A DNA stretch of 64,000 bases, taken from assembly GCA_934183155.1 (NCBI GenBank), contig CAKPSB010000002.1:64834-128833 (forward strand), given 5' to 3'. This document shows positions 3,465 through 50,822 of this stretch, in pieces. The position numbers and the translations under genes were made by a program. Positions within the stretch are counted from its first letter, which is position 1; every line of letters starts with the position of its first letter. This DNA comes from an uncultured Bacilli bacterium. Its GTDB lineage: Bacteria > Bacillota_I > Bacilli_A > RF39 > UBA660. The notes beneath the pieces are model-generated. The model was not told the DNA's origin and did not search any database. It saw only the letters and a list, made by a program, of their open reading frames with translations.

Positions 3465-3586
3465 TACAAAAACATGGAATTTCAAATAATTAATTTGATT
3501 AAAGATATATTTTAATTATTAATTAAAATGACATCATGTAATTAAAATGACATCATGTATTTATTTCTATAAGGAGTTGGTTAGAA

Positions 3587-7054: not shown

Positions 7055-7092
7055 TAGTTATACTATTACATGGATGAGGTAGGAGATGAAAT

Positions 7093-9924: not shown

Positions 9925-10110
9925 ATGATAATAACTGAAACTTTTAAAAATGGTGGTAAAGATATTGGGGCTTTATTACAAGAATATGTATGCTTAATAC
10001 TTAAATATAAAGATGAAAATGGTAAAATAGATGACACAAATGATGGTAAGAGAGTTATAATGGAATCGGCAAACAAGATGCTATGCAAAAGAAAGGAGAA
10101 TAATGTATAG
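9925..10110 (+). CDS. small hypothetical protein overlapping the recombinase start; possible accessory or directionality factor
   Basis: 61-aa ORF preceded by GGGG RBS-like sequence; stop overlaps the recombinase ATG. Confidence 0.25.
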   Translation: MIITETFKNGGKDIGALLQEYVCLILKYKDENGKIDDTNDGKRVIMESANKMLCKRKENNV

Positions 10111-20005: not shown

Positions 20006-21802
20006 ATGAAGAAAAAAGGATTTACATTAATAGAATTACTAGCAGTAATAACTATATTAGGAATTATATTATTAATAATAGTTCCAAACGTTACGGGTAT
20101 GTTAAACCGTTCAAAAGGAAGAATAAATGAAGAACAAAAAAGAGCATTAATAGATAGTGCCAAAAAATGGGGGACAAACAATTTATTACTCAAAAACGGT
20201 AAAGCGTATTATAATAACAATCAAAAAAGATATGTAACCTTAGGTGAATTAAAAAACTATGGATACCTAGAAGATAAAAAAATTAAAAATTTAATCAATA
20301 AATCAGATATTCCTGATGAAACAAAAATATGTATAAATTATAAAAACAATCAATTTGTCTATTCAATTAATGATGATAATATGTGTGAAAACAATTACCC
20401 TATTATGATGAAAAGAGATACGTCTAAAGCATTCTGGCAATCTGATTATAAAAATAAAATATCTACAGTAGCTGTTCTTGATAATAAAAACGTTCCTTCA
20501 ACTGTAGTAGCATCATGGGATGTATCAGAGAAACAAAACAAATCAGTTATGGCTTGGATTATAGATGATCCAAATAATAGCGGTATGTATAAGCTTTATA
20601 TTGGTGGTGATGGAGGAGTTGCTGCACCAGCTGATTCAAGTAATTTATTTGATGGGGGTATCGAAGGCCAAGAAGAAAATTTTGGTAAAACAAAGACAAT
20701 GAATTTAGCAAAATTAGATACATCAAGAGTAACAAATATGGAGGGGATGTTTGCTGGTTGTGGTTCTCTTACGAACTTAGATGTAAGTAACTTTGATACA
20801 AGCAAAGTAACAAATATGAGTTATATGTTTTCTGGCTGTGAGTCTCTTACCAGCTTAGCTTTAAATAGCTTCGATACAAGCAAAGTAACAGATATGAGTG
20901 GTATGTTTAGCTATAATTCTCTTACAAGTTTAGATGTAAGTAACTTTAATACAAGCAATGTAACAAATATGGCTTCTATGTTTAGGTACTGTAGTTCTCT
21001 TACCAACTTAGACATAAGTAACTTTAATACAAGCAAAGTAACAGATATGAGTGGTATGTTTAGCGATAGTTCTTTTACCAGCTTGGATTTAAGCAACTTT
21101 AATACAAGCAAAGTAACAGATATGAGTCGAATGTTTTATAATTATAGGTCTCTTACAAGCTTAGATTTAAGTAATTTTAACACAAGTAATGTAACAAATA
21201 TGAGTTATATGTTTGGCAGTTGTGGTTCTCTTACCAGCTTGGATTTAAGCAACTTTAATACAAGCAAAGTAACAAATATGGAAGCTATGTTTGATAGTTG
21301 TAGGGCTCTTACCAGCTTGGATTTAAGCAACTTTAATACAAGCAAAGTAACAAATATGTATTATATGTTTTATGACTGTAGTTCTCTTACAAACTTAGAC
21401 GTAAGTAACTTTAATACAAGCAAAGTAACAGATATGGGTTATATGTTTTTTCGCTGTAGTACTCTTACCAGCTTAGATTTAAGTAAATTTGATACCAGCA
21501 ATGTAGCAAATATGAGTGGTATGTTTAATTATTGTAGTTCTCTTACCAACTTAGATGTAAGTAACTTTAATACAAGCAAAGTAACAGATATGGGTTATAT
21601 GTTTAGGTATTGTAAATCTCTTACCAACCTAAAATTGTGTTCATTTGATACTTCTAAAGTAACAAATATGTATTCTATGTTTGAGGGTACTTCAAAATTA
21701 ACTAAAGTTTATGTTGGACCTAAATGGACAACGGCAAATGCTACTACAACTAGTATGTTTACTAGGAGTGGAGTATCAGCAGTAACAACAAATCAATGTT
21801 AA
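20006..21802 (+). CDS. prepilin-type N-terminal domain fused to a BspA/DUF285 leucine-rich-repeat surface protein (paralogue 1; ~13 repeats of 26 aa)
   Basis: 'MKKKGFTLIELLAVITIL' class-III signal; repeats 'SLTSLDLSNFNTSKVTNMSYMFxxC'; conserved C-terminus '…VSAVTTNQC'. Confidence 0.75.
   Translation: MKKKGFTLIELLAVITILGIILLIIVPNVTGMLNRSKGRINEEQKRALIDSAKKWGTNNLLLKNGKAYYNNNQKRYVTLGELKNYGYLEDKKIKNLINKSDIPDETKICINYKNNQFVYSINDDNMCENNYPIMMKRDTSKAFWQSDYKNKISTVAVLDNKNVPSTVVASWDVSEKQNKSVMAWIIDDPNNSGMYKLYIGGDGGVAAPADSSNLFDGGIEGQEENFGKTKTMNLAKLDTSRVTNMEGMFAGCGSLTNLDVSNFDTSKVTNMSYMFSGCESLTSLALNSFDTSKVTDMSGMFSYNSLTSLDVSNFNTSNVTNMASMFRYCSSLTNLDISNFNTSKVTDMSGMFSDSSFTSLDLSNFNTSKVTDMSRMFYNYRSLTSLDLSNFNTSNVTNMSYMFGSCGSLTSLDLSNFNTSKVTNMEAMFDSCRALTSLDLSNFNTSKVTNMYYMFYDCSSLTNLDVSNFNTSKVTDMGYMFFRCSTLTSLDLSKFDTSNVANMSGMFNYCSSLTNLDVSNFNTSKVTDMGYMFRYCKSLTNLKLCSFDTSKVTNMYSMFEGTSKLTKVYVGPKWTTANATTTSMFTRSGVSAVTTNQC
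20690..21660 (+). repeat. tandem 78-bp coding repeats (26-aa DUF285/BspA LRR units) in paralogue 1
   Basis: Periodic 'agcttagat(g/t)taagtaactttaatacaagcaaagtaaca(a/g)atatg' units. Confidence 0.8.
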
Positions 21803-21835
21803 ATAATAAAATTAATAAAAAGTTGAGGTTATAAA

Positions 21836-23782
21836 ATGAAGAAAAAAGGATTTACATTAATAGAATTACTAGCAGTAATAACTATATTAGGAATTATATT
21901 ATTAATAGTAGTTCCAAACGTTACGGGTATGTTAAACCGTTCAAAAGGAAGAATAAATGAAGAACAAAAAAGAGCATTAATAGATAGTGCCAAAAAATGG
22001 GGGACAAACAATTTATTACTCAAAAACGGTAAAGCGTATTATAATAACAATCAAAAAAGATATGTAACCTTAGGTGAATTAAAAAACTATGGATACCTAG
22101 AAGATAAAAAAATTAAAAATTTAATCAATAAATCAGATATTCCTGATGAAACAAAAATATGTATAAATTATAAAAACAATCAATTTGTCTATTCAATTAA
22201 TGATGATAATATGTGTGAAAGCAATTACCCTATTATGATGGCAAGAGATAGGTCTAAAGCATTTTGGCAAAGTACATATAAAGATAAAATATCTACAGTA
22301 GATGTTCTCGATAATAAAAACGTTCCTTCAACTGTAGTAGCATCATGGGACGTATCAGAGAAACAAAATAAATCAGTTATGGCTTGGATTATAGATGACC
22401 CAGATAATAGTGGTATGTATAAACTTTATATTGGTGGTGATGGAGGAGTTGCTGCCCCAACTAATTCAAATGGGTTATTTGGTGGATATAATTCTAATTT
22501 TAGTAAAACAAAGACAATGAATTTAACTAATTTAGATACATCAAGAGTAACAAATATGATAATGATGTTTTATGATTGTAGTTCTCTTACCAGCTTAGAT
22601 TTAAGTAATTTTGATACAAGTAATGTAACAGATATGAGTAATATGTTTTATAAATGTAGTTCTCTTACGAACTTAGATATAAGTAATTTTAATACAAGCA
22701 AGGTAACAAATATGGATACTATGTTTTATGGTTGTAGTTCTCTTACTAGCTTAGACGTAAGTAACTTTGATACAAGAAATGTAACAGATATGAGCTGGAT
22801 GTTTAGTGGGTGCAGTAAACTTACCAACTTAGATGTAAGTAATTTTAATACAAGCAAAGTAACATCTATGAGTAGTATGTTTTCTGGTTGTAGTTCTCTT
22901 ACCAGCTTAGACGTAAGTAAATTTGATACAAGCAAAGTAACATCTATGAGAAGTATGTTTTCTGGTTGTAGTTCTCTTACCAGCTTAGACGTAAGTAAAT
23001 TTGATACAAGCAAAGTAACAAATATGAGTTATATGTTTTTCTTTTGTAGTTCTCTTACCAGCTTAAATGTAAGTAATTTTAATACAATCAAAGTAACAGA
23101 TATGAGTTTTATGTTTTCTGATTGTAAATCTCTTACAAACTCAGATGTAAGTAACTTTGATACAAGTAAAGTAAAGAATATGAGTGGTATGTTTAGGTAT
23201 TGTAGTTCTCTTACCAGCTTAGATGTAAGTAACTTTGATACAAGCAAAGTAACAAATATGGACAGTATGTTTCTGGGCTGCAGTAAACTTACCAGCTTAG
23301 ATTTAAACAACTTTAATACAAGCAAAGTAACGGATATGTTCCAAATGTTTACTCATTGTAATTCTCTTAAAAATTTAGATATAAGTAAATTTAATACGAG
23401 CAATGTAACAGATATGGGTTCTATGTTTTATGGCTGCAGTAAACTTACAAATTTAGATGTAAGTAACTTTAATACAAGCAATGTAACAAGTATGTTCCAA
23501 ATGTTTAGTGGGTGTTGGGCTCTTACCAGCTTAAATGTAAGCAACTTTGATACAAGCAAAGTAACAAATATGAGTTATATGTTTATAGCCTGCAGTAAAC
23601 TTACCAGCTTAAAATTGTGCTCATTTGATACATCTAAAGTAACGACAATGAATTCTATGTTTTATGGTACTTCAAAATTAGCTAAAGTTTATGTTGGATC
23701 TAAATGGACAACGGCAAATGCTACTACAACTAATATGTTTACTGGTAGTGGCGTATCAGCAGTAACAACAAATCAATGTTAA
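21836..23782 (+). CDS. prepilin-type N-terminal domain fused to a BspA/DUF285 LRR surface protein (paralogue 2; ~15 repeats)
   Basis: First ~630 nt >95% identical to paralogue 1; identical 33-bp upstream spacer. Confidence 0.75.
   Translation: MKKKGFTLIELLAVITILGIILLIVVPNVTGMLNRSKGRINEEQKRALIDSAKKWGTNNLLLKNGKAYYNNNQKRYVTLGELKNYGYLEDKKIKNLINKSDIPDETKICINYKNNQFVYSINDDNMCESNYPIMMARDRSKAFWQSTYKDKISTVDVLDNKNVPSTVVASWDVSEKQNKSVMAWIIDDPDNSGMYKLYIGGDGGVAAPTNSNGLFGGYNSNFSKTKTMNLTNLDTSRVTNMIMMFYDCSSLTSLDLSNFDTSNVTDMSNMFYKCSSLTNLDISNFNTSKVTNMDTMFYGCSSLTSLDVSNFDTRNVTDMSWMFSGCSKLTNLDVSNFNTSKVTSMSSMFSGCSSLTSLDVSKFDTSKVTSMRSMFSGCSSLTSLDVSKFDTSKVTNMSYMFFFCSSLTSLNVSNFNTIKVTDMSFMFSDCKSLTNSDVSNFDTSKVKNMSGMFRYCSSLTSLDVSNFDTSKVTNMDSMFLGCSKLTSLDLNNFNTSKVTDMFQMFTHCNSLKNLDISKFNTSNVTDMGSMFYGCSKLTNLDVSNFNTSNVTSMFQMFSGCWALTSLNVSNFDTSKVTNMSYMFIACSKLTSLKLCSFDTSKVTTMNSMFYGTSKLAKVYVGSKWTTANATTTNMFTGSGVSAVTTNQC
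22520..23650 (+). repeat. tandem 78-bp coding repeats in paralogue 2
   Basis: Same unit as paralogue 1; it also produces the spurious antisense ORFs listed in the track. Confidence 0.8.
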
Positions 23783-23815
23783 ATAATAAAATTAATAAAA
23801 AGTTGAGGTTATAAA

Positions 23816-25051
23816 ATGAAGAAAAAAGGTTTTACATTAATAGAATTACTAGCAGTAATAACTATATTAGGAATTATATTATTAATAGTAGTTCCAAACG
23901 GTACGGGTATGTTAAACCGTTCAAAAGAAAGAATAAATGAAGAACAAAAAAGAACATTAATGGATAGTGTTAAAAAGTGGGGGACAAGTAACTTAACGCT
24001 TAAAAATGACAGAGTATATTATAATAATAGTCCCAAATCGTATGTTACTATAGGTGAGTTAAAAAACTATGGATATTTAGAAGATAAAAAAATTAAAAAT
24101 CTAACTAATAAATCAGACATTTCGGATGAGACAAAAATATGTATAAATTACAAAAACAATCAATTTGTCTATTCAATTAATGATGATAATAAGTGCAAAA
24201 ACAATTACCCTATGATGATGGAAAGAGATGTGTCTAAAGCTTTTTGGACTTATGAGTCAAGAATATCTACTATAGATGTTCTTGACAATAAAAGCGTACC
24301 CAATAATGCAGTAGCATCATGGGACGTATCAGAGAAACAAAATAAATCAGTTATGGCTTGGATTATAGATGATCCAAATAATAGTTATATGTATAAACTT
24401 TATATTGGTGGTGATGGTGGTGTTGCCGCCCCAGCTGATTCATATTCATTATTTGGTGGGTATGAAAGTAGTTTTGATAGAACAAAGACAATGAATTTAG
24501 CAAAATTAGATACATCTAAAGTAGCAAATATGAGCGAAATGTTTGCCTATTGTAATTCTCTTACCAGCTTAGATGTAAGTAACTTTGATACAAGTAATGT
24601 ACTAAATATGCGTGCTATGTTTGCCGGTTGTAATAATCTTACTGATTTAAATATAAGTGGCTTTGATACAAACAATGTAAAGAACATGGCATATATGTTT
24701 TATAATTGTAATTCCCTTAAAACTTTAAATTTAAGTTCATTTGATACATCTAAAGTAATATATATGGATAACATGTTTTACAATTGTAATTCCCTTACAA
24801 GCTTAGATTTAAACAACTTTAATACAAGTAGTGTAACAATTATGGATTCAATGTTTGCCGAGTGTAGTTCTCTTACAAGCCTAAAATTATGTTCATTCGA
24901 CACATCAAAAACAACCATAATGAGTTATATATTCAGTGGCACTTCAAAATTAACTAATGTTTACGTTGGAAGCAAATGGAAAACTGTAGCTACAGCAACT
25001 AATATGTTTACTGGTAGTGGCGTATCAGCAGTAACAGAGGGTCAATGTTAA
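23816..25051 (+). CDS. prepilin-type N-terminal domain fused to a BspA/DUF285 LRR surface protein (paralogue 3; ~6 repeats)
   Basis: Same N-terminal module and same upstream spacer; shorter repeat array; ends '…VSAVTEGQC'. Confidence 0.75.
   Translation: MKKKGFTLIELLAVITILGIILLIVVPNGTGMLNRSKERINEEQKRTLMDSVKKWGTSNLTLKNDRVYYNNSPKSYVTIGELKNYGYLEDKKIKNLTNKSDISDETKICINYKNNQFVYSINDDNKCKNNYPMMMERDVSKAFWTYESRISTIDVLDNKSVPNNAVASWDVSEKQNKSVMAWIIDDPNNSYMYKLYIGGDGGVAAPADSYSLFGGYESSFDRTKTMNLAKLDTSKVANMSEMFAYCNSLTSLDVSNFDTSNVLNMRAMFAGCNNLTDLNISGFDTNNVKNMAYMFYNCNSLKTLNLSSFDTSKVIYMDNMFYNCNSLTSLDLNNFNTSSVTIMDSMFAECSSLTSLKLCSFDTSKTTIMSYIFSGTSKLTNVYVGSKWKTVATATNMFTGSGVSAVTEGQC
24500..24930 (+). repeat. tandem 78-bp coding repeats in paralogue 3
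   Basis: Same unit as paralogue 1, more divergent. Confidence 0.7.
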
Positions 25052-28145: not shown

Positions 28146-28212
28146 TATAAAATTATCAGTTTTTTATCATTTTTAGACCATAAAAGCATATCTTAAAATG
28201 AGGGGTGATAAT

Positions 28213-28746
28213 ATGGCATCATATAAAGAAATAGTAACTAAAGCAATTATTGGAAAAGGAAAAAAACACTTTAAAAATAATTATTCATTAAAAGTAGAAA
28301 ATAAGCCAACTACTGTCTTAGGTTGCTGGGTAATAAACCATAAATTTAAGGGATATAAATCAGGTGATAAAATAGGAGTAGATGGTTCCTTTGATATAAA
28401 CATCTGGTACTCATATAACAGTGACAGTCAAACAGCCGTTATCAATAAAAAAATAGAATATAATGAGCTATTCAATGTTAAATTAAAAGAAAACACCGAC
28501 TCCACCAATGCCGATATTATTGTAAGATCTTTAAAACAACCAACTTGCTCCGGCGTTAATATCAAAGATGATGAAACAATATCATTTAACATTGAAAAAG
28601 AATTAGGCGTTGAAATAGTAGGAGAAGCCAAAGTTAAAATAGCAGTTGAAGAAGATGAAGAGCCATGGGAAGAAATAACAGATGATGTAGATGAAGACAC
28701 ATTAAAAGAAATAGACGAAAAAGTAGACGAAGATTATCTAAAATAG
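28213..28746 (+). CDS. cotE: spore coat morphogenetic protein CotE homologue
   Basis: 'SYKEIVTKAIIGKGKKHF…VLGCWVINHKF…DINIWYSY…LKQPTCSGVNI…EIVGEAKVKIAVEEDEEPWEE' is collinear with B. subtilis CotE, including the acidic tail. Confidence 0.7.
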   Translation: MASYKEIVTKAIIGKGKKHFKNNYSLKVENKPTTVLGCWVINHKFKGYKSGDKIGVDGSFDINIWYSYNSDSQTAVINKKIEYNELFNVKLKENTDSTNADIIVRSLKQPTCSGVNIKDDETISFNIEKELGVEIVGEAKVKIAVEEDEEPWEEITDDVDEDTLKEIDEKVDEDYLK

Positions 28747-37778: not shown

Positions 37779-39575
37779 ATGAATCCTAACATGATTTTTT
37801 CACTTTGCAGTTTTATCTATGCAAGTTTAATAGCCATAATGTATTTTTCAAAAGAACGCATTAAGTCAGTAGAAAATAAGATGTACTCAATAATTTTAAT
37901 GTCAACAATTATTGGCCTAGCAGTTGAATTATTAGGAGCTATATCAAATTTAATTTTATCATCAACATCTATAGTTACCAATATACTATTCAAATTAATA
38001 ATGTTATACTTTTTTAGCTGGATATTTGAACTTTTTATATACGTTTATGTTGTGTCAAAAAATAAAAAGAAAATAAATTCTCGCTTAATCTTGTCAGTTT
38101 ATCTACCACTTGCCATAATTACTTTACTACTGCCATTGTATAGTAAAGAAGTAAATGGACTTGCCCAATATACATATGGTCCAAGTGTCAACTTTGTATA
38201 TGGCATATCAGGAATACTAATTTTAACACTTATAGTTATAATGATTATTAATATAAAACATATTATTTCCAAAAAATATGCCCCATTATTTGCCTTTATG
38301 ATCCTTGGCATTTTAATGGCTATCATCCAACACATCTATCCACAACTACTTTTGATGTCATCTGTTGAAGCTTTTGTTACAATCTTAATGTATTTTACAA
38401 TTGAAAATCCAGATACACAAATGATGAGAGAGCTTTACAAAAATAGAAAATTAATTGAAAAATCAAACGAAGATACATCAAACTTTTTATTTAAAATGAC
38501 CCAAGATATTAAAAAACCAGTAAAAGACATTATTGAAGTTAGTAAAAATATGGAATCATTAAACAAATTAGAAGAATTAAAACAACAAGCAAAATATATA
38601 AACAACGTTGGTAGTGATATAGACTATTTAATTAACGATGCCCTAGATGTATCAGCTATGAATACAAAACAATTAAAAATATACGATAGTAGATATAATC
38701 CTACAAATTTATTTAAAGAAGTAGAATATCGCTTTGAAAACGAACTCGATGAAAATATTAAGTTTCATTTTGAAATCAGTAAAGTCGTTCCAAATTACCT
38801 ATATGGCGATTCTATAAAACTAAAACAAGCAATTAATTCCTTACTTGCAAACAGTAAAAAGCATACCACATCAGGAGAAATAAATATGACCGTAAGTGGT
38901 ATTGTTAAATACGGAATATGTAGATTAATTATTGATATAAATGATACTGGTAAAGGCATGAGTATAGAAGAAGTCAATGACGTATTAAGCCTAAATAGTA
39001 AACAACTTTCTGAAATTGATCTTCATAATCGCGATGGCGAAATTTTAAAACTGAAAGAAGTAAAAAAATTGATTACCATATTAGGTGGTAATTTAATGGT
39101 AAAAAGTGAAGAAAATAAAGGAACAACAGTTAATATTGTTTTAGACCAAAAAGTAGTTGAAACAAAAGAAACAGAAATATCAAAAAAACTAGAAACCTAC
39201 GAGCAAACATTATATAAAAACAAAAAAGTAATGGTTGTTGATGACGATGCTAAAGAGCTAGCCAAAATAACTTCATATCTAGAAAATCATGAAGCTGAGG
39301 TAAGCGGTTCATTATTTGGAAGAGACTGCATTGAAAAAATCGAGAATAATATCAAGTATGATTTAATATTATTAGATGATGAAACCTCTACCTATAGCGC
39401 CCTTGAAGTATTAAAAGAGTTAAAAACAAATAAAAAATTCAACATTCCAGTTGTTGTCATGATAAATGATAGCAAAGAATTTATAAAGCTTCATTATCTT
39501 CAAGATGGTTTTGCTGACGTTATTTTAAAATCAAAATTAGAAAGTGAAGTAAATAGAATAATGAAAAGGTTTTAA
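37779..39575 (+). CDS. membrane sensor histidine-kinase-like protein with C-terminal receiver domain (hybrid); the H-box His appears replaced by Gln
   Basis: Six or seven N-terminal TMs; 'TQDIKKPV' where 'HELRTPL' is expected; N-box 'LLANSKKH'; G1 'DTGKGMS'; receiver 'KVMVVDDD…DLILLDD'. Confidence 0.55.
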   Translation: MNPNMIFSLCSFIYASLIAIMYFSKERIKSVENKMYSIILMSTIIGLAVELLGAISNLILSSTSIVTNILFKLIMLYFFSWIFELFIYVYVVSKNKKKINSRLILSVYLPLAIITLLLPLYSKEVNGLAQYTYGPSVNFVYGISGILILTLIVIMIINIKHIISKKYAPLFAFMILGILMAIIQHIYPQLLLMSSVEAFVTILMYFTIENPDTQMMRELYKNRKLIEKSNEDTSNFLFKMTQDIKKPVKDIIEVSKNMESLNKLEELKQQAKYINNVGSDIDYLINDALDVSAMNTKQLKIYDSRYNPTNLFKEVEYRFENELDENIKFHFEISKVVPNYLYGDSIKLKQAINSLLANSKKHTTSGEINMTVSGIVKYGICRLIIDINDTGKGMSIEEVNDVLSLNSKQLSEIDLHNRDGEILKLKEVKKLITILGGNLMVKSEENKGTTVNIVLDQKVVETKETEISKKLETYEQTLYKNKKVMVVDDDAKELAKITSYLENHEAEVSGSLFGRDCIEKIENNIKYDLILLDDETSTYSALEVLKELKTNKKFNIPVVVMINDSKEFIKLHYLQDGFADVILKSKLESEVNRIMKRF

Positions 39576-40997: not shown

Positions 40998-43529
40998 ATG
41001 GATAGAAAAACTGTTGATATGACGAAAATAACCCCAATGATGAAACAATATTTAGAAATCAAAAATCAAAATGAAGACCTAATTATATTTTTTAGATTAG
41101 GTGATTTTTATGAGATGTTTTTTGATGACGCCATTAAAGTAAGTCATGAATTAGAACTTACACTAACTGGTAAATCAGCAGGCCTAGAAGAAAGAATTCC
41201 AATGTGTGGTATTCCATTTCACGCCGCCAACAGTTATATAGAAAAATTAATTGAAAATGGCCATAAAATAGGTATTGTTGAACAATTAGAAGATCCAAAA
41301 ACAGCCAAAGGAATAGTAAAAAGGGGAATCGTTCAAATAGTATCATCTGGTACTAATATGGATAGCGAAACAATCAAAGCAAACGATTTTAACTACATAG
41401 CTTCAATTACCGAAACAGCATACAACTACGTAATAAGTTACGCCGATGTATCAACGGGCGAGCTATATGCCTTTGCCATAGAACATAATCAAGCCAAAGT
41501 GATCTCTGAAATTATTAACCTAAATGCCAAAGAAGTAATTATGGATAGTAAAACTGACAAAAATATTTATTCAATTTTAAAAAATCAATTTCATCTAACC
41601 TTAACAATTACTGATGAATTAACAGATGACTATTCATACACTTACAAAGATATTATTGACCCAAGATATATATTGTCAGTTAAACACTTGCTCGCATACA
41701 TTATTCACAATCAAAAAAGAGATCTCAATCATTTACAAAAACTTCAAATAAAAGAATCTAAAGATTATTTAAAAATGGATGTACATACCAAAAGGAACTT
41801 AGAATTAACCGAAACATTGAGATTAAAGCAAAGAAATTATTCCTTAATATGGCTTTTAGATAAAACAAAAACTGCCATGGGTGCTAGAACATTAAAAAAC
41901 TATGTATTAAACCCCTTAGTAGATAAAAAAGAAATAGAAAAAAGATATGATATGGTTGATATCCTTCTTAAAGAATTTATCCTAAAAAGTGATTTAGAAA
42001 AATATTTAACCGAAGTCTATGATTTAGAAAGATTGAGTGGTAAAATTGCCTTCGGCAATGTAAATGGTAAAGATTTACTACAATTAAAAACATCCTTAAA
42101 AGTATTTCCATATATAAATGAAATATTAAAAAAATTAAATTTTTCTAAGTCATTAGATGATTTGACAGAACTATATAATCTTTTAGAAAATAGTATATAT
42201 GAAAACCCACCAGCAACCATCAAAGAAGGTTATTTAATTAAAGCCGGTTATAATAGTCAACTTGATGAGTTAAAAAAACTTCGGAAAGGTGGCAAAGATT
42301 TCATTGCCAAATTTGAACAAGAAGAAAGAGAAAAAACAGGCATAAAAAATTTAAAAGTAGCCTACAATAGAATCTTTGGCTATTATATAGAAATTAGTAA
42401 AGGTAATTTAGACTTAGTTCAAGAAAAATGGGGTTATCAACGAAAACAAACTCTTGCGAACGCCGAAAGATACATCTCACCAGTGTTAAAAGAAAAAGAA
42501 TCTTTAATATTAAATGCTGAAGAAAAAATAATTAATTTAGAATATGAATTATTTATACAAATTAAAGATGAAGTAAAAAAATATATTCCAAACTTACAAA
42601 AGTGTGCCAAAGTAATTAGTGAAATAGACGTTTTAGCGTCTTTCGCAACCGTATCGGAAGCAAATAATTACATAAGACCAGAAATAACAAAAAATGAACT
42701 TTATATTAAAGAAGCTAGACATCCAGTTGTCGAAAAAGTAATATCATCCGAATTTGTAAGTAATGATATCATCATGGATAAAAACACCAACATTTTATTG
42801 ATAACTGGACCAAATATGGCCGGAAAATCAACATATATGAGACAAATGGCTATAATTGCCATCATGGCACAAATAGGTTGCTTTGTTCCCGCAAGTGAAG
42901 CAAAATTACCAATATTTGATGCCATTTACACGAGAATAGGAGCATCTGATGACCTAGTATCTGGTCAATCAACCTTTATGGTTGAAATGAAAGAAGCCGC
43001 CGAAGCCATAACACAAGCCACAGATAAAAGTCTACTTCTGTTTGATGAATTAGGTAGAGGAACTGCCACTTTCGACGGAATGGCTTTAGCCCAAGGAATA
43101 TTAGAATATATTCATCAAAACATTAAAGGAAAAACATTCTTTTCAACCCATTACCACGAACTTACAGATCTAGATAAAACATTAAAACATTTAAAAAATA
43201 TTCACGTAAGTGCCTATGAAGAAGATGGTAAAATCACATTTTTACATAAAATAAAACAGGGAAGTGTAGATAAAAGTTATGGTATACATGTAGCTAAATT
43301 AGCAAACTTGCCATCATCAGTTATAAAAAGAGCAGACGAAATATTAAAAGTTTATGAAGCAAACGAAAACAAACGAGATTTAAAAATTCAAGAAGCCTTA
43401 CCAATAGACGACCTAATGCCAAAAAAATCAAAGATAGAAGAAAAACTAGATAAAATAGACCCACTTTCTATTACACCAATGGAAGCCTTAAACATCTTAT
43501 ATGAATTAAAAAAAAATAAACAAAATTAA
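40998..43529 (+). CDS. mutS: DNA mismatch repair protein MutS
   Basis: 'TPMMKQYLEIK', 'GPNMAGKSTYMRQ', 'FDELGRGT', 'THYHEL'. Confidence 0.95.
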   Translation: MDRKTVDMTKITPMMKQYLEIKNQNEDLIIFFRLGDFYEMFFDDAIKVSHELELTLTGKSAGLEERIPMCGIPFHAANSYIEKLIENGHKIGIVEQLEDPKTAKGIVKRGIVQIVSSGTNMDSETIKANDFNYIASITETAYNYVISYADVSTGELYAFAIEHNQAKVISEIINLNAKEVIMDSKTDKNIYSILKNQFHLTLTITDELTDDYSYTYKDIIDPRYILSVKHLLAYIIHNQKRDLNHLQKLQIKESKDYLKMDVHTKRNLELTETLRLKQRNYSLIWLLDKTKTAMGARTLKNYVLNPLVDKKEIEKRYDMVDILLKEFILKSDLEKYLTEVYDLERLSGKIAFGNVNGKDLLQLKTSLKVFPYINEILKKLNFSKSLDDLTELYNLLENSIYENPPATIKEGYLIKAGYNSQLDELKKLRKGGKDFIAKFEQEEREKTGIKNLKVAYNRIFGYYIEISKGNLDLVQEKWGYQRKQTLANAERYISPVLKEKESLILNAEEKIINLEYELFIQIKDEVKKYIPNLQKCAKVISEIDVLASFATVSEANNYIRPEITKNELYIKEARHPVVEKVISSEFVSNDIIMDKNTNILLITGPNMAGKSTYMRQMAIIAIMAQIGCFVPASEAKLPIFDAIYTRIGASDDLVSGQSTFMVEMKEAAEAITQATDKSLLLFDELGRGTATFDGMALAQGILEYIHQNIKGKTFFSTHYHELTDLDKTLKHLKNIHVSAYEEDGKITFLHKIKQGSVDKSYGIHVAKLANLPSSVIKRADEILKVYEANENKRDLKIQEALPIDDLMPKKSKIEEKLDKIDPLSITPMEALNILYELKKNKQN

Positions 43530-43531
43530 AA

Positions 43532-43562
43532 AACATGTTCAATATCAAACATGTTTTTATTA
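43532..43562. terminator. bidirectional rho-independent terminator between mutS and the convergent sortase gene
   Basis: Palindrome AACATGTT-caatatca-AACATGTT with flanking A/T tracts. Confidence 0.55.
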
Positions 43563-44429
43563 TAATGTTTTACCAACTTCCAAGTCTTTATATTTTTCAA
43601 GTTGTCTTGCCCTTGCAAATACTAAAACTCGATTATTACCCTTGTGATCAGAAGAATTACGATATGGACACGTCCAAAGACAAACAATTTTATCACCAAA
43701 ATGAGGCACAACATCTGTTTTAATATCAGACTCACTCATTATTTCATTCATTTTTTGCTGAAAATCATTCTCATCAGCAAAATCTCCAACCCAATTGTAA
43801 GCATCACTAGCGTCATAAACACCAGAAGCAAAAATATCAAGTGAATAATGACCATATTCATCGTAATAATCAATTCCTTTAGTTTTATCAAGCATTTGTT
43901 GTGGCGTTTTAGTAGCTTTGTAACTATCACTATCCGCAAACTGACTTAATTTACTAAATAAAAATCTATCACCACTAGGAGCAACAATATTATGACCATA
44001 TATAAGAGTAAAGTCATCACTTAAGCCTTCTGAATTACGACTATCTTTGAAAATACAACCATGATTATTTTCCGCACCTTCTATGTCATGTGAAAGACCA
44101 TAATTGTTATCATCAAATTGTCCAACTGGCAGCGTACCACCATCAGAGCTAAATAAATCATCACTTTTTAAATAAGCCTCAGTATTTTCATCATAAATAT
44201 AAGGACTAATAGCATAATCATCATCTGCGTCATAAATAGTTTCAATGCTATGTTCTTCTACATAATCACTAGTTTTATTACTCTCCAAAAAATAAGGAAT
44301 ATTAAGAGCCTCTAAAACAATAGTTCCAATAATTAGTGCTTTAAACGTAACCCTAGTTATACATTTAAATTTTTCCTTTATATTACCAACTTTTCTAACG
44401 TTATATTTTTCAAATATATCAGATTCCAT
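43560..44429 (-). CDS. srtB: class B sortase (membrane-anchored transpeptidase)
   Basis: N-terminal TM; 'TLIYGHN', catalytic 'IVCLWTCPY' (TLxTC-like) and downstream 'NNRVLVFARA' Arg, collinear with S. aureus SrtB. Confidence 0.65.
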   Translation of the reverse strand: MESDIFEKYNVRKVGNIKEKFKCITRVTFKALIIGTIVLEALNIPYFLESNKTSDYVEEHSIETIYDADDDYAISPYIYDENTEAYLKSDDLFSSDGGTLPVGQFDDNNYGLSHDIEGAENNHGCIFKDSRNSEGLSDDFTLIYGHNIVAPSGDRFLFSKLSQFADSDSYKATKTPQQMLDKTKGIDYYDEYGHYSLDIFASGVYDASDAYNWVGDFADENDFQQKMNEIMSESDIKTDVVPHFGDKIVCLWTCPYRNSSDHKGNNRVLVFARARQLEKYKDLEVGKTL

Positions 44430-44541
44430 AAAATCACCAAATAAATTGTATCACAATTATAAAGAAAGTACAATTTCAAAAAATTTATTGTTATTAGCCT
44501 TAATTTTTGATATAATTTATATGATAGGGAAACGTGATAAT

Positions 44542-44898
44542 ATGAATAAAAAAGGGCAAGCATTAATTGAATTCGTACTAATACTACCAGTTTTACTATT
44601 AATAATTATGACGATGATAGATGTTGGTAATATTTTTATAAAAAAGTATGAATTAAATAAAGACTTAGAAACAATAAGCGATTTGTACCAAAACAATGAA
44701 AACAAACAACTTGCCGCATATATTGCCAGTGAGGAAATAAAATTTGAAGAAAAACCAGTAGGTGATATGGTAAAATTAACTATAACAAAAGATATAAATA
44801 TAGCGGCACCTATTTTGTCAAATGTCCTTGGAAAAGAATATAAAATAAGCTTGTCAAAAATGGTATATGCCAGCTACGAGGGAATAAATGGACAATAA
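44542..44898 (+). CDS. TadE-like pseudopilin / Flp-pilus assembly protein
   Basis: 'MNKKGQALIEFVLILPVLLLIIMTMIDVGN' TadE N-terminal motif; ATG at 44542 after the GGGAAACGTGA RBS. Confidence 0.7.
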   Translation: MNKKGQALIEFVLILPVLLLIIMTMIDVGNIFIKKYELNKDLETISDLYQNNENKQLAAYIASEEIKFEEKPVGDMVKLTITKDINIAAPILSNVLGKEYKISLSKMVYASYEGINGQ

Positions 44899-45256
44899 AG
44901 GACAAAGCTTAGTAATATTCGTTTTGCTGCTTCCTATAATATTCATAATACTTTCTATTATCTGGGAACTTGGTAATATGCAACTTCAAATTAGTCAGTA
45001 TGAAAATGCCATAAAAGACAATATTAAATATGGACTTAACCATCAAAATTTAGAAAATCTAAAAGAAAAACTAGATAATTTAATGTCCAAAAATACTGAC
45101 GGAAACTATCAAATAGAAATAAAAAACGAAATAATAAAAATAAATTTAAAAACAAACTACCAAAGCATTTATTCAGAAATATTACATTTTTCTAATATAG
45201 ATATAACATATATAGGATACAAAGAAAACAATAAAATAATTATAAAAAAAGAATAG
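44888..45256 (+). CDS. TadE-like pseudopilin (second copy)
   Basis: 'MDNKGQSLVIFVLLLPIIFIILSIIWELGN'. Confidence 0.65.
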   Translation: MDNKGQSLVIFVLLLPIIFIILSIIWELGNMQLQISQYENAIKDNIKYGLNHQNLENLKEKLDNLMSKNTDGNYQIEIKNEIIKINLKTNYQSIYSEILHFSNIDITYIGYKENNKIIIKKE

Positions 45257-45265
45257 AGGGATATC

Positions 45266-46000
45266 ATGGCTATAAAGCAAGCAAAAGTTATCACCATAAC
45301 ATCAGTTAAAGGTGGTACCGGAAAAACAACATTAACCTTAGCACTAGCGGGATTATTATCACAAAAAAACAAAAAAACAATCATCGTTGATATGGATCTT
45401 CATACAGGGGTAATTGCTCCATCTTTAAACTTAAAATACGACAAAGACTTCTATACACTAACCAGCGATATTATGAATCATCAATTTAAAACATTAGAAA
45501 ACTATACACTTCATTACAATGAATATATTGATGTTCTACCAGCGCCTAAAGATCCTAGAAACGTTGCTAAAATAGCCACTTCATACATTGATATTATTTT
45601 AAAAAAACTAAAATACCTTTACGATGTAATTTTAATCGATACAAATCACATTATTGACAACATCAATCTTGTAACGTATGACAACAGTGATAATATAATA
45701 TATGTTTTAAACCATGACTTAATGGCCTTAAAAAACATGAAAACAATGTTAGCCATATATGATGATATGAAATTATCAAAATACACCCTAGTTCTAAACA
45801 GTATATTTAACGATACCAATATACAAAAAAAAGATATAACCGATTATCTAGGAGTTCATATAAACTATGTTATTTCAAAAAACTTTTATGAAAAAAAGTT
45901 AACAAGTTGCCTAATGAAAGGGAAAATATTTAATTTAGAAAAACAATATCAAAAAGAAAATAGCATTTTAAATAAATTATTAGACGACATTTTAAAGTAA
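45266..46000 (+). CDS. CpaE/TadZ-like ParA/MinD-family ATPase of the Tad locus
   Basis: Deviant Walker A 'ITSVKGGTGKTT'. Confidence 0.7.
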   Translation: MAIKQAKVITITSVKGGTGKTTLTLALAGLLSQKNKKTIIVDMDLHTGVIAPSLNLKYDKDFYTLTSDIMNHQFKTLENYTLHYNEYIDVLPAPKDPRNVAKIATSYIDIILKKLKYLYDVILIDTNHIIDNINLVTYDNSDNIIYVLNHDLMALKNMKTMLAIYDDMKLSKYTLVLNSIFNDTNIQKKDITDYLGVHINYVISKNFYEKKLTSCLMKGKIFNLEKQYQKENSILNKLLDDILK

Positions 46001-46011
46001 AGGAGGATACC

Positions 46012-47334
46012 ATGGAAAAAAAATTTGTAGATGAATTTTCATTGTCAACAGACCAAAATATTCCAAAAGAGATAGATGATTATGATGAATTTCCAAATAA
46101 AATTTTACTAGACAAATTAAGAGGAAAAATAATCCAAAGCCTTATAGACAGCAAAAAAATGGAAAATGAAAATATGCAAGATTTCATCAAAGATAAAATT
46201 AACAAAGCAACTGAAGGATACGATCTTTCAAATGATGAAAGAAGCTACATATATAATTTAATTGATAACGAAATAAATGGGTATGGTCCTTTAACCGAAC
46301 TTTTAAAAGACAAAGAATTAACAGAAATAATGGTAAATGCCCCAGATGAAATATACATAGAGCTAGATGGTAAAATAATAAAAGATGACAGTGTCAGCTT
46401 TATAAATGATGAGCACATTGTAAGAGTCGTTCAAAGACTAATTCAACCAATCGGTAAAACTGTAGATTTAGCTCATCCAATGGTAGACGCCAGATTAGAC
46501 GATGGGTCAAGATTAAATGCCATATTGCCACCGCTTTCATTAAATGGACCAGTTGTAACTATCCGTAAATTCAAAAGTGAACTTGCAAATGTTGAAGATT
46601 TTTTAAGAACTGGAACACTAACGCCATATATGGCTAGATTTCTAGAAGCCTGTGTTCACGCTAAGTTAAACATTTTAGTAGTAGGGGGAACAGGTAGTGG
46701 TAAAACCACTTTATTAAATGTTCTATCTTCATTTTGCGATCCAAACGATCGTATAATAACCATAGAAGATGCCGCTGAACTAAAGTTAAAACAAAAACAT
46801 GTAATTTCACTTGAAACAAGAACCACAAATTATGAAGGACAAGGAGCAGTAACTATAAGAGATTTAGTTAGAAACTCTCTAAGAATGAGACCGGATAGAA
46901 TAATTGTTGGAGAAGTTAGAGGAAAAGAAGCCTTTGACATGCTGCAAGCCATGAACACTGGCCATGAAGGAAGTATGACAACCATGCATGCCAATAGTCC
47001 ACAAGACGCCCTAAATAGATTAGAAACTATGGTTTTAATGAATGGAGTAGAAATACCAGTTGGAGCTATTCGAGAATACATTGAAAGCGCTATTCAAATA
47101 GTTGTTCAAGTTACCAGATTATCCGACGGTCGAAGGAGAGTCTGCAGCATAAATGAAATTACCGGAATAGAAAACGGAGAAATAAAACAAAAAGAAATAT
47201 TTAAATTCAAACAAACAGGCGTTTTGCCAAATGGCGATGTTGATGGAGAATTTTTACTTCATAAATATGTGCCAAAAGTTTATAGTAAAATAAAATCAAA
47301 AGGTATTGATGACTTAAAAGATATATTTGGATAA
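46012..47334 (+). CDS. cpaF: CpaF/TadA secretion ATPase (type II/IV secretion NTPase family)
   Basis: '[14 protein letters not shown]', '[11 protein letters not shown]', 'TMHANS'. Confidence 0.85.
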
Positions 47335-47344
47335 GGAGGATAAA

Positions 47345-48808
47345 ATGGACGGAAAATTCGATATAAAAAGTAATAAAAAACCAGTAAATAAAGACATTAC
47401 TATCGTCTTTTCCCCATCTAGTAATGTCCAAAAATATACTTATAAAATATACAAAGATGATATATTACAAAATAGTTTTGATGTGAATTTTTCAACTCCA
47501 TCTAATATCTATTTAAATAAAACTGGAAAATATAAAATAAAAGTTGTACTTTTTTTAAAAAATGGTCAAATAGAAAGCCTTGAAAGTGGCTATTACAATA
47601 TTGATAAAGAAAAACCTATAATAAATATTGTAACAGGTAGTAATAATAAAGTTACCTGTACAGCACATGACAATATAGACGGCGATATAACAAAAAAAAT
47701 TCAAGAAAGTAAACTTGACTTAAAAAAATCAGGGGCACAAAAATTCACCTGTACAGTTCAAGATGAAGCCGGAAACATTGCCACCAACTTTACCGATATA
47801 AATGTTGTAAAGCCTGATGCTACAATATATATAATTCAAATGATATGCTTTATAACAGCACTTATTTTTATCAAAAGAATTATTCATTTATTTAAAGTTG
47901 TAAAACTAGAAGAAAGATTAGATAGTTATACCATAAAGCCATTAGACAAAAAACAAATATCAACCTTTGAAAAAATTTCAAAAATTTATCAAAAAATTAT
48001 ATCTAGTTTCAGCAAAAAACTTGAAAAATCAGTTATAGCAAAAAAACAAGCCCAAAAATTAGATAAATATACTATTGTCAGTCCCATATATAAAAATGGT
48101 TTTGATATAATTAGCGGCAAAATAATTATCGCCTTTGCAGTAACACTACTAGCTTTATTTTCGAAAGCTTTGCAATTCAAATTATTAATTCCATCTGAAG
48201 CTTTATTCTCATTTGTCTTAGGATTTTTTATCCTAGATATTTATCTATTTACTAAATATAAGTTTTTTCGCTGGCGATTAGAAAGCGATTTCATTGCGGC
48301 CATCACCATTATGAATAACGCTTTTAAATCAGGAAGAAGCATTACCCAAGCAATTGACATTGTATCTACCGAAGTACAAGGAGTAATTGGTTCCGAATTT
48401 AAAAGAATGAGCATGGAACTTCTTTATGGATTAAGTGTTGATACCGTTTTTAAAAGATTTGCCAAAAGAGTAGATTTAGAAGAAGCCAGCTATCTAACAG
48501 CCTCACTTACAATTTTAAATAAAACTGGTGGCGACATCATAAAAGTTTTTTCTTCCATTGAAAGAAGCATGTTTGATAAAAGAAAATTAAGATTAGAATT
48601 AAAATCCTTAACAAGCGGTAGTAAAATAGTGGTTTATGTTTTACTTGGAATACCATTTTTCTTTAGTTTAGTTATATCAATAATAAATAAAGATTATTTA
48701 TTGCCATTTATAAATACTAATATTGGTAGATGTCTCTTGATATTTATGATAATTTACTATATAATTTTTGTGGTAGTAGTTAAAAAGATAATGAAGGTGG
48801 TGATTTGA
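47345..48808 (+). CDS. TadB-like inner-membrane platform protein (T2SSF domain) with an extra ~150-aa N-terminal domain
   Basis: T2SSF-like TM/loop organisation after aa ~160; ATG at 47345 after AAGGAGGA; the track start at 47327 is a TTG. Confidence 0.6.
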   Translation: MDGKFDIKSNKKPVNKDITIVFSPSSNVQKYTYKIYKDDILQNSFDVNFSTPSNIYLNKTGKYKIKVVLFLKNGQIESLESGYYNIDKEKPIINIVTGSNNKVTCTAHDNIDGDITKKIQESKLDLKKSGAQKFTCTVQDEAGNIATNFTDINVVKPDATIYIIQMICFITALIFIKRIIHLFKVVKLEERLDSYTIKPLDKKQISTFEKISKIYQKIISSFSKKLEKSVIAKKQAQKLDKYTIVSPIYKNGFDIISGKIIIAFAVTLLALFSKALQFKLLIPSEALFSFVLGFFILDIYLFTKYKFFRWRLESDFIAAITIMNNAFKSGRSITQAIDIVSTEVQGVIGSEFKRMSMELLYGLSVDTVFKRFAKRVDLEEASYLTASLTILNKTGGDIIKVFSSIERSMFDKRKLRLELKSLTSGSKIVVYVLLGIPFFFSLVISIINKDYLLPFINTNIGRCLLIFMIIYYIIFVVVVKKIMKVVI

Positions 48809-49509
48809 TGGAAGATGAAAAAAAAATCGTCCAAAGAATTTACCGAAAAGAAGAATTAGATAAAATAGATAATCAACTTAAGAGTTTAAGCAAGAATACT
48901 AAATACAACGTTTATACATTTTGCTTTACTCGTTTAGTATCAACCACAATAATCTTCTTAATTACCTTATTTACTTTAAAATTAGGCTATATTATTGCTC
49001 CATTCGTAGCTATAATATTTTACCAACTTTTCTATTACTTAAATATTACTAAAAAATTAACGGCGCGTAATCGTAAATTAGAACACGAAGCTTTATATTT
49101 TTTTGAAATATTAACATTAACATTAGAATCAGGAAGAAATTTGGAAAACGCTTTAGTTGTTACCTGTGATAATGTTGATTCGGAAATTTCAAATGAATTT
49201 AAAGAAGCATTAGAAGAAATGAAATTTGGAAAATCATTAATTGAAACATTGAGCGATTTAAAAAGTCACATTTCATCAGATATTATAAATAACATAATAT
49301 TAAATATAATTCAAACAAGCCAGTTTGGTAATAGTATATTAGAAACGTTATACAACGAAGTTGATTTTTTAAGACAAAAAGAACTTTTATCAGTTAAAGA
49401 GCAAATAAACAAAATACCAAATAAAGTAAGTATTATCTCTGTTTTGTTTATCGTACCATTAATAATTATTCTAATATTAGGCCCATATTTGATAAAAGTT
49501 ATTGGTTAG
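48808..49509 (+). CDS. TadC-like inner-membrane platform protein (T2SSF domain)
   Basis: TGATG overlap with tadB; T2SSF-like membrane topology. Confidence 0.6.
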   Translation: MEDEKKIVQRIYRKEELDKIDNQLKSLSKNTKYNVYTFCFTRLVSTTIIFLITLFTLKLGYIIAPFVAIIFYQLFYYLNITKKLTARNRKLEHEALYFFEILTLTLESGRNLENALVVTCDNVDSEISNEFKEALEEMKFGKSLIETLSDLKSHISSDIINNIILNIIQTSQFGNSILETLYNEVDFLRQKELLSVKEQINKIPNKVSIISVLFIVPLIIILILGPYLIKVIG

Positions 49510-49520: not shown

Positions 49521-50822
49521 ATGTATTATTTTATAGGAATAAAAGGAACTGGTATGAGTGCACTCGCATGTTTTCTATGTGATTTAGGCTATGAGGTTAA
49601 AGGAAGTGACGTTGAAAGACACTTCTTCACTGAAAAAGGCTTAAATGAAAGAGGCATTGAAATATTACCATACGATGAAAATAACATAAAAAAAGACATG
49701 GTTATTATTAAAGGAAATGTTATCAAAGAAGATCATCCAGAATATATGAAAGCTAAAGAACTTGATTTAAAAATTTACACATACCAAGAAATGATTTCAA
49801 AGCTAACTAAAATGTTTATGACCGTCACAGTAGCTGGCTGCCATGGTAAAACAACGACATCAACAATGGCTTACCAAGTTTTAAATAAATTAAAAGGAGC
49901 AAATTGTTTAATTGGTGATGGTACAGGAATAGCAAATAGAGAAAACAAATATTTTATATTAGAAGCCTGTGAATACCAAAGACATTTTTTAAACTACACT
50001 CCGTATTATGCCATTATCACAAACATCGAGTTAGATCATGTTGACTATTATAAGGATATCGATGACGTTATTGACGCTTTTACTCAGTATGCTAATAACG
50101 CTGAAAAAATGGTTATTGCCTGTGGTGATGATCCATATACTCATAGCCTAGAAGTAAATAAACCAATATTTTATTATGGCTTAGATGAAGACAATGATAT
50201 AATTGCTAAAAATGTTGATTTCAACGAAAACGGTGTTAACTTTGATGTATTTGTTGAAGACAATTACTATGGCCATTTTGATTTACCAATATATGGAAAA
50301 CACATGCTTTTAGATGCTCTAGCCGTAATCAGTTTGTGTTACTACGAAAGGTTAGATGCCAAAGAAGTATCTAAAGAACTTAAACATTTTCATACAGCAC
50401 GCCGAAGATTTAATGAAACCATAGTTGGAGATAATGTTGTTATTGATGATTATGCTCACCATCCAACTGAACTAAAATGTACAATTAAATCAGCTAAACA
50501 AAAATATCCAAACAAAAAACTAGTAGTAATATGGGGACCACACACTTACTCTAGAACAAAAGCATTTAAAGATGAATACATTGAAATATTAAAAACAGTA
50601 GATAAAGCTTACATTATGGATATATATGCTGCCAGAGAAAAACAAGGAGATATTGACATAAATATAAATGATATAATTGAAGCCATACCTAACGCTGAAC
50701 ATATTACCACAAATGAAGCTGATAAATTATTAAAATATAAAAACACAGTATTATTATTTATGAGTCCAAACGATTTAATTAACTTCGAACAGGATTATAT
50801 AAATAAAGCTCAAAGATTTTAA
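49521..50822 (+). CDS. murC: UDP-N-acetylmuramate--L-alanine ligase
   Basis: 'MYYFIGIKGTGMSALACFL', 'VAGCHGKTTTSTM'. Confidence 0.9.
   Translation: MYYFIGIKGTGMSALACFLCDLGYEVKGSDVERHFFTEKGLNERGIEILPYDENNIKKDMVIIKGNVIKEDHPEYMKAKELDLKIYTYQEMISKLTKMFMTVTVAGCHGKTTTSTMAYQVLNKLKGANCLIGDGTGIANRENKYFILEACEYQRHFLNYTPYYAIITNIELDHVDYYKDIDDVIDAFTQYANNAEKMVIACGDDPYTHSLEVNKPIFYYGLDEDNDIIAKNVDFNENGVNFDVFVEDNYYGHFDLPIYGKHMLLDALAVISLCYYERLDAKEVSKELKHFHTARRRFNETIVGDNVVIDDYAHHPTELKCTIKSAKQKYPNKKLVVIWGPHTYSRTKAFKDEYIEILKTVDKAYIMDIYAAREKQGDIDININDIIEAIPNAEHITTNEADKLLKYKNTVLLFMSPNDLINFEQDYINKAQRF

Follow-up and report, generated by a model that had tools for sequence, protein, structure and literature searches.

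A conserved Tad-type pilus operon in an uncultured Bacilli bacterium that may depend on flp and prepilin peptidase genes in trans

Results and Discussion

We analyzed a stretch of 64,000 nucleotides from an uncultured Bacilli bacterium (contig CAKPSB010000002.1, hereafter the window) and focused on a six-gene operon, tadE1-tadE2-tadZ-cpaF-tadB-tadC, at positions 44542–49509. We interpret this element as the core operon of a Tad (type IVc) pilus in a monoderm, passed on by vertical inheritance, with the Flp pilin gene (flp) and the prepilin peptidase acting in trans. For this whole statement, including the supply of flp and peptidase in trans, we estimate a probability of roughly 0.55. Judged by the same sequence comparisons, it is very probable that the genes form a functional operon for Tad pilus assembly with which the adjacent sortase gene has no relation.

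Overall organization of the locus

The initial annotation of this DNA had placed a divergent sortase B-like gene followed by tadE, tadE-like, tadZ, cpaF, tadB and tadC between mutS and murC. All seven genes and both flanking genes are present in this order, and the family assignments support a compact Tad-type locus of a monoderm. In the following list, as in the text, a slash marks the prepilin processing site.

40998–43529: mutS, upstream flank
43529–43558: AT-rich inverted repeat where mutS and the srtB-like gene converge, plausibly an intrinsic terminator for both directions
43560–44429, minus strand: SrtB-like protein with an N-terminal membrane anchor (TIGR03064, 82 bits); a neighbor only, outside the Tad system
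44488–44516, plus strand: sigma-70-like promoter, TTGTTA-17-TG-TATAAT (consensus match only)
44542–44898, plus strand: TadE1, TadE-type minor pilin, MNKKG/QALIEF (PF07811, 37.7 bits)
44888–45256, plus strand: TadE2, TadE/TadF-like minor pilin, MDNKG/QSLVIF (weak PF07811 match, E = 0.02)
45266–46000, plus strand: short TadZ-like ParA/MinD ATPase of 244 residues (AAA_31, CbiA and MinD-family matches)
46012–47334, plus strand: CpaF/TadA hexameric pilus motor ATPase (PF00437, 217 bits; TIGR03819, 332 bits)
47327–48808, plus strand: TadB platform protein with an immunoglobulin (Ig)-like N-terminal extension and one T2SSF domain (residues 326–450)
48805–49509, plus strand: TadC platform protein with a single T2SSF domain
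49521–50822: murC, downstream flank
20006–25051, plus strand: three tandem leucine-rich repeat (LRR) modular pilins (N_methyl plus DUF285/PARCEL repeats)

The locus displays the defining features of a Tad system, namely a CpaF-clade ATPase, a platform split into TadB and TadC, a ParA-like TadZ and TadE-type minor pilins. A local Flp, a local TadV and the N-terminal domain of TadZ are missing. With regard to RcpA, RcpB, RcpC and TadD, no secretin-family match was found among the operon and flank proteins scanned against Pfam; in a monoderm no secretin is expected. The initial annotation had seen no flp, tadV or secretin gene nearby, and indeed none was found in the window or in the 10 kb past each of its ends in the same species. 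These two flanks also contain no A24 peptidase gene and no T2SSF gene. We regard the short TadZ, the Ig-extended TadB and the unlinked flp and peptidase genes as probable lineage-specific traits of an otherwise ordinary Tad system.

The window has a low GC content (~28%). We read the host as a Gram-positive spore-former, because the window encodes CotE, MurC, MurD, DnaD and DnaI.

Conservation of the operon in related genomes

A CpaF-based scan with one genome per species yielded 80 loci, 62 from the same lineage of gut Bacilli and 18 outgroups (L numbers denote individual loci or sequence records). The closest relatives are metagenome-assembled genomes labeled Candidatus Coprosoma, Firmicutes bacterium CAG:822 and "uncultured Bacilli". 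Complete genomes among the relatives measure 1.2–1.34 Mb; taken together with the largest contigs of the lineage, the range is 1.2–1.5 Mb.

The order tadE1-tadE2-tadZ-cpaF-tadB-tadC is intact in all 62 lineage relatives. Within the closest clade mutS lies directly upstream of the operon. CpaF is 59–91% identical to its relatives, values as high as or higher than those for MutS and MurC from the respective genomes, for example 73% versus 60% for the housekeeping comparison in L015 and 64% versus 42% in L054. Because of this relation we conclude from the sequence comparison that the operon is ancestral, vertically inherited and strongly constrained. Two other origins were considered and rejected. 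Horizontal acquisition as a "widespread colonization island" does not agree with an operon that stays beside murC and whose divergence tracks that of the housekeeping genes, and a pseudogenized relic does not agree with a conserved operon and intact motifs.

At the downstream end, tadC and murC are separated by 11 nt containing a GGGGG ribosome-binding site and neither a hairpin nor a terminator. In about half of the 62 relatives murC also follows tadC directly, and almost all of these have the long, Ig-extended form of TadB. Due to the short gap without a hairpin and the recurrence of this arrangement, the essential cell-wall gene murC may be co-transcribed with the pilus operon.

CpaF and TadZ

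The closest solved structures for the motor protein are those of Caulobacter CpaF (E = 1e-105, 355 bits), far ahead of the archaeal GspE-type ATPase 2OAP, FlaI and VirB11. Walker A motif, Asp box, Walker B motif and His box can all be read in the sequence.

The gene directly upstream of cpaF encodes a TadZ-like protein that consists of the ATPase domain only and carries the deviant Walker A motif KGGTGKT. The N-terminal, receiver-like domain of canonical TadZ/CpaE is absent from its 244 residues. Orthologues of the lineage comprise 238–275 residues, compared with 376–415 residues at the outgroup tad loci.

The TadB/TadC platform

PF00482 (T2SSF) is matched once in each of the two platform genes, and the gene pair is conserved in the relatives. 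An additional β-rich domain at the N-terminus of TadB, postulated previously, is confirmed and can be described as tandem Ig-like. The extension comprises ~165 residues (47327–47821), with the Ig-like part at approximately residues 10–160. The true start of TadB is probably the ATG at 47345; Met7 is invariant in the homologues. The extension gives a weak match to PF16403 (bacterial surface Ig-like/DUF5011). More than 1000 TadB homologues of ~490–510 residues are found, many of them with PF16403 ahead of T2SSF, and TadB of the sister clade has the usual form of ~335 residues. An exact-match look-up of the TadB of the window gave no recorded identical sequence.

An AlphaFold2 model of TadB based on 34 homologues (pLDDT 76) shows two β-sandwiches (residues ~10–160), a transmembrane helix (residues 165–197) and a helical body. 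The best Foldseek matches of the extension in the PDB are tandem Fn3/Ig modules. Hydropathy and the positive-inside rule give five predicted transmembrane segments with the Ig domains on the outside. The tandem Ig-like extension is thus predicted to be extracytoplasmic.

The TadE-like minor pilins

TadE1 (118 residues) scores well above the PF07811 cutoff (37.7 versus 22.9 bits), and orthologues with an identical prepilin motif are encoded in 62 of 62 relatives. A sequence search of the PDB with TadE1 gave no meaningful match. The promoter-like site upstream of the gene has 10 of 12 consensus matches and an extended -10 element and ends 26 nt before the ATG at 44542. For this reason the ATG is probably the start of TadE1 rather than the TTG at 44446.

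TadE2 is different at the prepilin motif, G/QSLVIF, with Ile instead of Glu at position +5. Its orthologues are conserved as well, and each one inspected is without Glu at this position. The initial annotation had ascribed a G/QALIEF-type motif to both TadE-like proteins and had regarded Glu at +5 as common to them and the LRR pilins (FTLIEL). This is correct for TadE1 and the LRR pilins but not for TadE2. By analogy to GspK-type minor pilins, TadE2 would be a candidate for a tip or initiator subunit.

The Flp pilin and the prepilin peptidase

A canonical Flp open reading frame of 63–73 residues is located directly upstream of tadE1 in 25 of the 62 relatives. The spacing between flp and tadE1 is 4–435 bp in 24 of these; in the remaining one (L054) a gene for a 1074-residue pilin intervenes. 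The N-terminus of Flp in the lineage reads M..KG/QALVEY(L/V)LII, with invariant G-Q-x-L-x-E-Y. In the alignment of these proteins (A2, L015–L058) two invariant Cys residues lie ~18 residues apart in the C-terminal tail (..TKSSC...GEKPGEG.C), which suggests a disulfide-bonded loop. The lineage Flp matches the archaeal Class_IIIsignal model of Pfam (23.3 bits) and gives no Flp_Fap match.

Neither Flp nor a remnant of it was detected in the window or in the 14 closest relatives (L001–L014) by motif scan, tblastn (E ≤ 10) or an Flp hidden Markov model; only TadE genes were matched. Altogether, flp is absent upstream of the operon in 37 of the 62 relatives; among those with enough upstream sequence the share is about half. 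However, a metagenome scan with the Flp alignment retrieved 80 loci, and among the 60 that could be classified flp was followed by a tad operon in 26 and was not in 34. The unlinked genes are found after an ATPase operon, in the gap between xseB and alaS, after ruvB, after rpoZ, and in the gap between a DUF192 gene and gmk. A fundamentally Flp-less locus is not supported in the light of these sister lineages with flp directly upstream and of the many genes of the same Flp family away from tad. Since unlinked flp genes are common in the family, an flp gene in trans is the likeliest solution for the genome studied here, and the lack of flp most likely reflects where the gene lies and not a different mechanism.

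In 20 of 95 flp loci, flp is preceded within 400 bp by a small, divergently oriented DUF192 (COG1430) gene. The pairing occurs with flp attached to tad or alone (e.g. L015, L017, L019, L022, L023, L029, L031, L042, L051, L054 and L158), and PF02643 was confirmed for the copy in L158.

No A24 peptidase motif GxGDxK was detected in the window or, across the lineage, at a distance of up to 10 kb from tad or flp. It occurs beside tad in outgroups only (L069–L079); apart from these, the lineage-wide scan gave two false positives.

The sortase-like gene

The divergent gene upstream of tadE1 had been assigned to the class B sortases. This holds for the catalytic residues: YGH, WTC and NR of the protein align to the catalytic His, Cys and Arg of S. 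aureus SrtB (1NG5, E = 2e-11). The profile thresholds are nevertheless missed, since the TIGR03064 score of 82 bits lies below the curated cutoff of 154 bits and Pfam Sortase (PF04203) is not matched. The protein belongs to a small family of 11 clusters. Homologues with 42–48% identity have lspA/thioredoxin or U32-peptidase/greA genes as neighbors, and those with 47–48% identity lie inside these gene pairs.

A sortase homologue is present at none of the 80 related tad loci, and no protein with a C-terminal sorting signal, the mark of a sortase substrate, is encoded in the window. Because of the missing linkage, the unrelated contexts of the homologues and the missing substrate, the idea of the sortase as a part of the locus has to be abandoned. 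On this comparative evidence the gene is a species-specific neighbor and not a Tad component.

The bidirectional terminator proposed between mutS and the srtB-like gene, on the other hand, is plausible, as the hairpin folds well on both strands. It has an AT-rich stem of 11–12 bp with U-tracts on both strands (-9.8 and -12.9 kcal/mol, z-scores of -2.8 and -3.6). A GC-based terminator scan found nothing in this region of 28% GC and overlooked the hairpin.

Modular pilins and a second filament system

The three LRR pilins about 20 kb upstream of the operon all carry MKKKG/FTLIEL, in agreement with the G/FTLIEL motif noted before. They combine this leader with an N_methyl module (PF07963; TIGR02532, 29.9 bits versus a cutoff of 16.3) and 12 PARCEL/DUF285 repeats. 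The N-terminal module resembles ComGC. The proteins (598, 648 and 411 residues) are tandem paralogues whose first ~130 residues are nearly identical and whose repeat arrays differ in length, so the trio looks like a recombining family of adhesin cassettes. They are possible cargo of the Tad machine or of a second type IV filament system.

Nine of the 62 relatives have an N_methyl pilin gene next to or inside the tad operon. It lies between cpaF and tadB in L033, between flp and tadE1 in L054 (the 1074-residue DUF285 pilin mentioned above), at the flp position in L027 and L062, directly after tadC in L017, L049 and L056, and adjacent to the operon in L023 and L051. Such genes occupy 8 of 106 tad-adjacent slots and 10 of 501 positions among the other flank genes (odds ratio 4, Fisher p = 0.006, with loci that are not independent). 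The insertion in L033 (2840–4962, 2.1 kb) contains the gene of a 341-residue N_methyl pilin, a second, truncated copy of the first 71 codons of this gene and a pair of small open reading frames, which suggests recombination at the conserved 5' end of pilin genes.

The lineage also encodes a GspE/PilB/ComGA-like ATPase. In L004, L005 and L013 its gene precedes tad by 5–7 kb, and in L149 and L155 its distance from flp is 2 kb. A further copy is present in L169 (6662–11338), which we infer to be of the same species as the window. This protein (P0174, 445 residues) is without the N-terminal GspE domains. Its gene is divergent from that of a 919-residue pilin-like protein with glycine-rich and ricin-lectin modules, which is followed by a 156-residue minor pilin; within 10 kb of P0174 there is no platform or peptidase gene. 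In none of six contexts does a PilC/ComGB platform gene lie beside the GspE-like ATPase, and the 2.2 Mb of lineage DNA that were fetched, a small and biased sample consisting of tad, flp and pilB neighborhoods only, did not yield one either.

Proposed assembly of the pilus and alternatives

Based on the family assignments and the comparison with the relatives we propose the following model. CpaF would act as the cytoplasmic hexameric motor on a split membrane platform of TadB and TadC, with the tandem Ig-like domain of TadB on the extracytoplasmic side. The short ParA/MinD-type TadZ would position or dock the motor. TadE1 (with Glu5) and TadE2 (without Glu5) would serve as minor pilins that prime the fibre, and the fibre subunit itself would be the Flp pilin of 63–73 residues that sister lineages encode immediately upstream of tadE. 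A rearrangement in this clade may have put mutS, and here also the stray sortase gene, at the flp position and thereby separated the operon from flp, so that flp and the prepilin peptidase would be provided by other sites of the chromosome. The pilus probably serves adhesion and colonization in the gut.

Several observations weigh against this model. About half of the relatives are also without flp within 10 kb, which is compatible with a loss of Flp and with TadE1 as the fibre subunit. Neither flp nor an A24 peptidase gene was found in the ~105 kb of this species that were examined (the window, 10 kb past each end and the 21-kb L169 locus). The peptidase search consisted of a single motif and Pfam scans of selected open reading frames, and a divergent peptidase could be missed by it.

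We consider it unlikely that the machine is truly Flp-less, with TadE1 as the polymerized subunit primed by TadE2. This explanation fits an operon that remains intact where flp is absent, the prepilin motif of TadE1, which is perfect everywhere, and the strong promoter-like site directly upstream of tadE1. It also has a precedent in the TadE-like subunits proposed for flp-less Gram-positive tad operons (Imam, Chen, Roos & Pohlschroder 2011, PLoS One, PMC3244431). However, with flp genes of the same family so often unlinked to tad in this lineage, local absence says little, and TadE1 is equally conserved where flp is present and where it is presumably a minor pilin. An operon for DNA uptake instead of adhesion seems very unlikely. 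The strong conservation in reduced genomes of 1.2–1.5 Mb would fit a need of the housekeeping type, for instance the scavenging of nucleotides or DNA, and a role in DNA uptake has been reported for Tad-like pili of Micrococcus luteus, but comEA, comEC and dprA were not seen in the window or in the annotated tad flanks; competence and adhesion are not distinguishable by sequence alone. As to a sortase-linked fibre, in which the SrtB-like enzyme would anchor or polymerize a Tad-related product, the single point in its favor is that the gene lies head-to-head with tadE1 in this genome. A C-terminal sorting signal is missing from TadE and Flp proteins, and together with the missing linkage and substrate described above this leaves the explanation a negligible chance; we reject it as effectively refuted.

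The modular pilins raise the question of a hybrid machine, in which the Tad platform would assemble or display N-methyl, ComGC-like pilins including the LRR trio, possibly with the help of the orphan GspE/ComGA-like ATPase. The roughly fourfold enrichment of such pilin genes next to tad, the ATPase genes near tad or flp without a PilC/ComGB neighbor, the absence of a second T2SSF open reading frame from the 2.2 Mb and the similar leader peptides (MxKKG/) point in this direction. On the other hand, the LRR pilins of the window lie 20 kb outside the operon, their pilin module resembles ComGC, a substrate type of PilB/ComGA machines, and in L169 the GspE/ComGA-like ATPase has two pilin genes of its own at its side. 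The related loci are moreover not phylogenetically independent, ComGB/PilC could quite possibly be encoded outside the neighborhoods that were fetched, and a literature precedent for a Tad machine polymerizing GFxxxE pilins was not found. We therefore rate the hybrid as decidedly unlikely. Doubtful to the same degree is a composite apparatus in which TadB/TadC would be served by both CpaF and the orphan ATPase, polymerizing Flp/TadE and displaying N-methyl modular adhesin pilins. Returning to the core operon with flp and peptidase in trans, we retain it as the preferred explanation.

Comparison with known systems

Tad operons are widespread in Gram-positive bacteria, and most of these loci encode TadV; a flp-less subset has TadE-like genes, which have been suggested as subunits (PMC3244431). 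The operon described here shares with this subset the monoderm tadZ-tadA-tadB-tadC core, the TadE-like genes and the absence of a secretin and of flp from the operon. It differs in the canonical flp that sister lineages have just upstream and in the flp genes that are found unlinked at other sites, in the absence of tadV in or near the operon, in the missing N-terminal domain of TadZ and in the Ig-like ectodomain of TadB.

The Cpa system of Caulobacter crescentus and the Tad system of Aggregatibacter have the same CpaF-type motor, split TadB/TadC platform and ParA-like TadZ/CpaE. The G/xxxxEF motif of TadE/TadF-type minor pilins and, in the relatives, the G/xxxxEY motif of Flp are also shared. 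In contrast to both, the present system is that of a monoderm without RcpA, RcpB, RcpC, TadD or a linked TadV, with a short TadZ, a predicted extracellular tandem Ig domain on TadB and a C-terminal Cys pair in the Flp of the lineage. The Tad pilus of Bifidobacterium breve UCC2003 is a gut colonization factor; its gene set is tadZABC-flp-tadE-tadF, and the prepilin peptidase is encoded at a different site. Both organisms are Gram-positive gut commensals; B. breve belongs to the Actinomycetota and has flp within its locus. We know of no Ig-extended TadB in the B. breve system.

Bulleidia extructa PP_925 (Erysipelotrichales), described in 2025, has both tad and comG loci in a 1.38-Mb genome. Its tad operon comprises 13 genes, among them that of TadG; tadV and two genes for major pilins come first, and horizontal acquisition is reported (PMC12786226). 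Like the host of the present operon it is one of the Bacillota with a reduced genome, and it retains a tad locus together with a second, Com-type filament system. In our case, however, the operon has six genes, contains no pilin or peptidase gene and has been inherited vertically beside murC. For the LRR pilins, PilB and PilC of S. sanguinis are the closest parallel, in which a pilin module is joined to a bulky binding module (Raynaud et al. 2021, PMC8179133). The LRR proteins likewise have an N-terminal IPR012902/N_methyl module fused to a bulky binding module, and by analogy with these modular pilins they would be expected to sit at the pilus tip. Unlike in S. sanguinis, the binding module is a PARCEL/DUF285 array, and in the relatives such genes are found in tad rather than pil operons.

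Other features of the window and its flanks

A hybrid histidine kinase/response regulator with a multi-transmembrane N-terminus is encoded 5 kb upstream of the operon (37779–39575). Homologues with 30–41% identity lie a few kb (where measured, ~2–9 kb) upstream of flp or tad in L017, L024, L025, L032, L038 and L039 as well as in many metagenomic loci (L121–L139), and the kinase may be a conserved regulator.

Besides CotE (28198–28746), genes for SpoVAC, SpoVAD and SpoVAEB are present just outside the window (L174, 14379–16157). The lineage thus appears to retain sporulation genes in a small genome of 1.2–1.5 Mb.

Positions 2268–9234 and 10103–11677 look like a variable defence or mobile island. 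They encode an AAA_14/DUF4143 ATPase, a 713-residue SMC-like ATPase, a large serine recombinase and a 702-residue fusion of an EcoRI-type N6-adenine and a C5-cytosine DNA methyltransferase, followed by two unannotated open reading frames. In a sister strain (L174) spoVA genes take the place of the methylase block.

In the 10 kb upstream of the window start (L173, 1–9907), a protein of at least 2362 residues without a Pfam match is followed by four small open reading frames, of which one weakly matches S24/signal-peptidase-like proteins. A further cluster for a surface fibre may be located here.

Biological implications

If the proposed model is true, the operon adds one more Tad pilus to those of Gram-positive bacteria, and its main use is to annotate a gut lineage that is abundant but uncultured, the Ca. 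Coprosoma/CAG-822-like Bacilli. In that case the constraint on the tad machine, which is stronger than that on MurC, suggests that pili are central to a host- or partner-associated lifestyle. The extracellular tandem Ig domain predicted for TadB may show how a Tad pilus passes the Gram-positive wall without Rcp and TadD components. Finally, N-methyl modular adhesin pilin genes are repeatedly found embedded in tad operons, a hint of cross-talk between the classes of filaments; a composite apparatus, if it existed, would mean cross-class use of pilins by a Tad machine.

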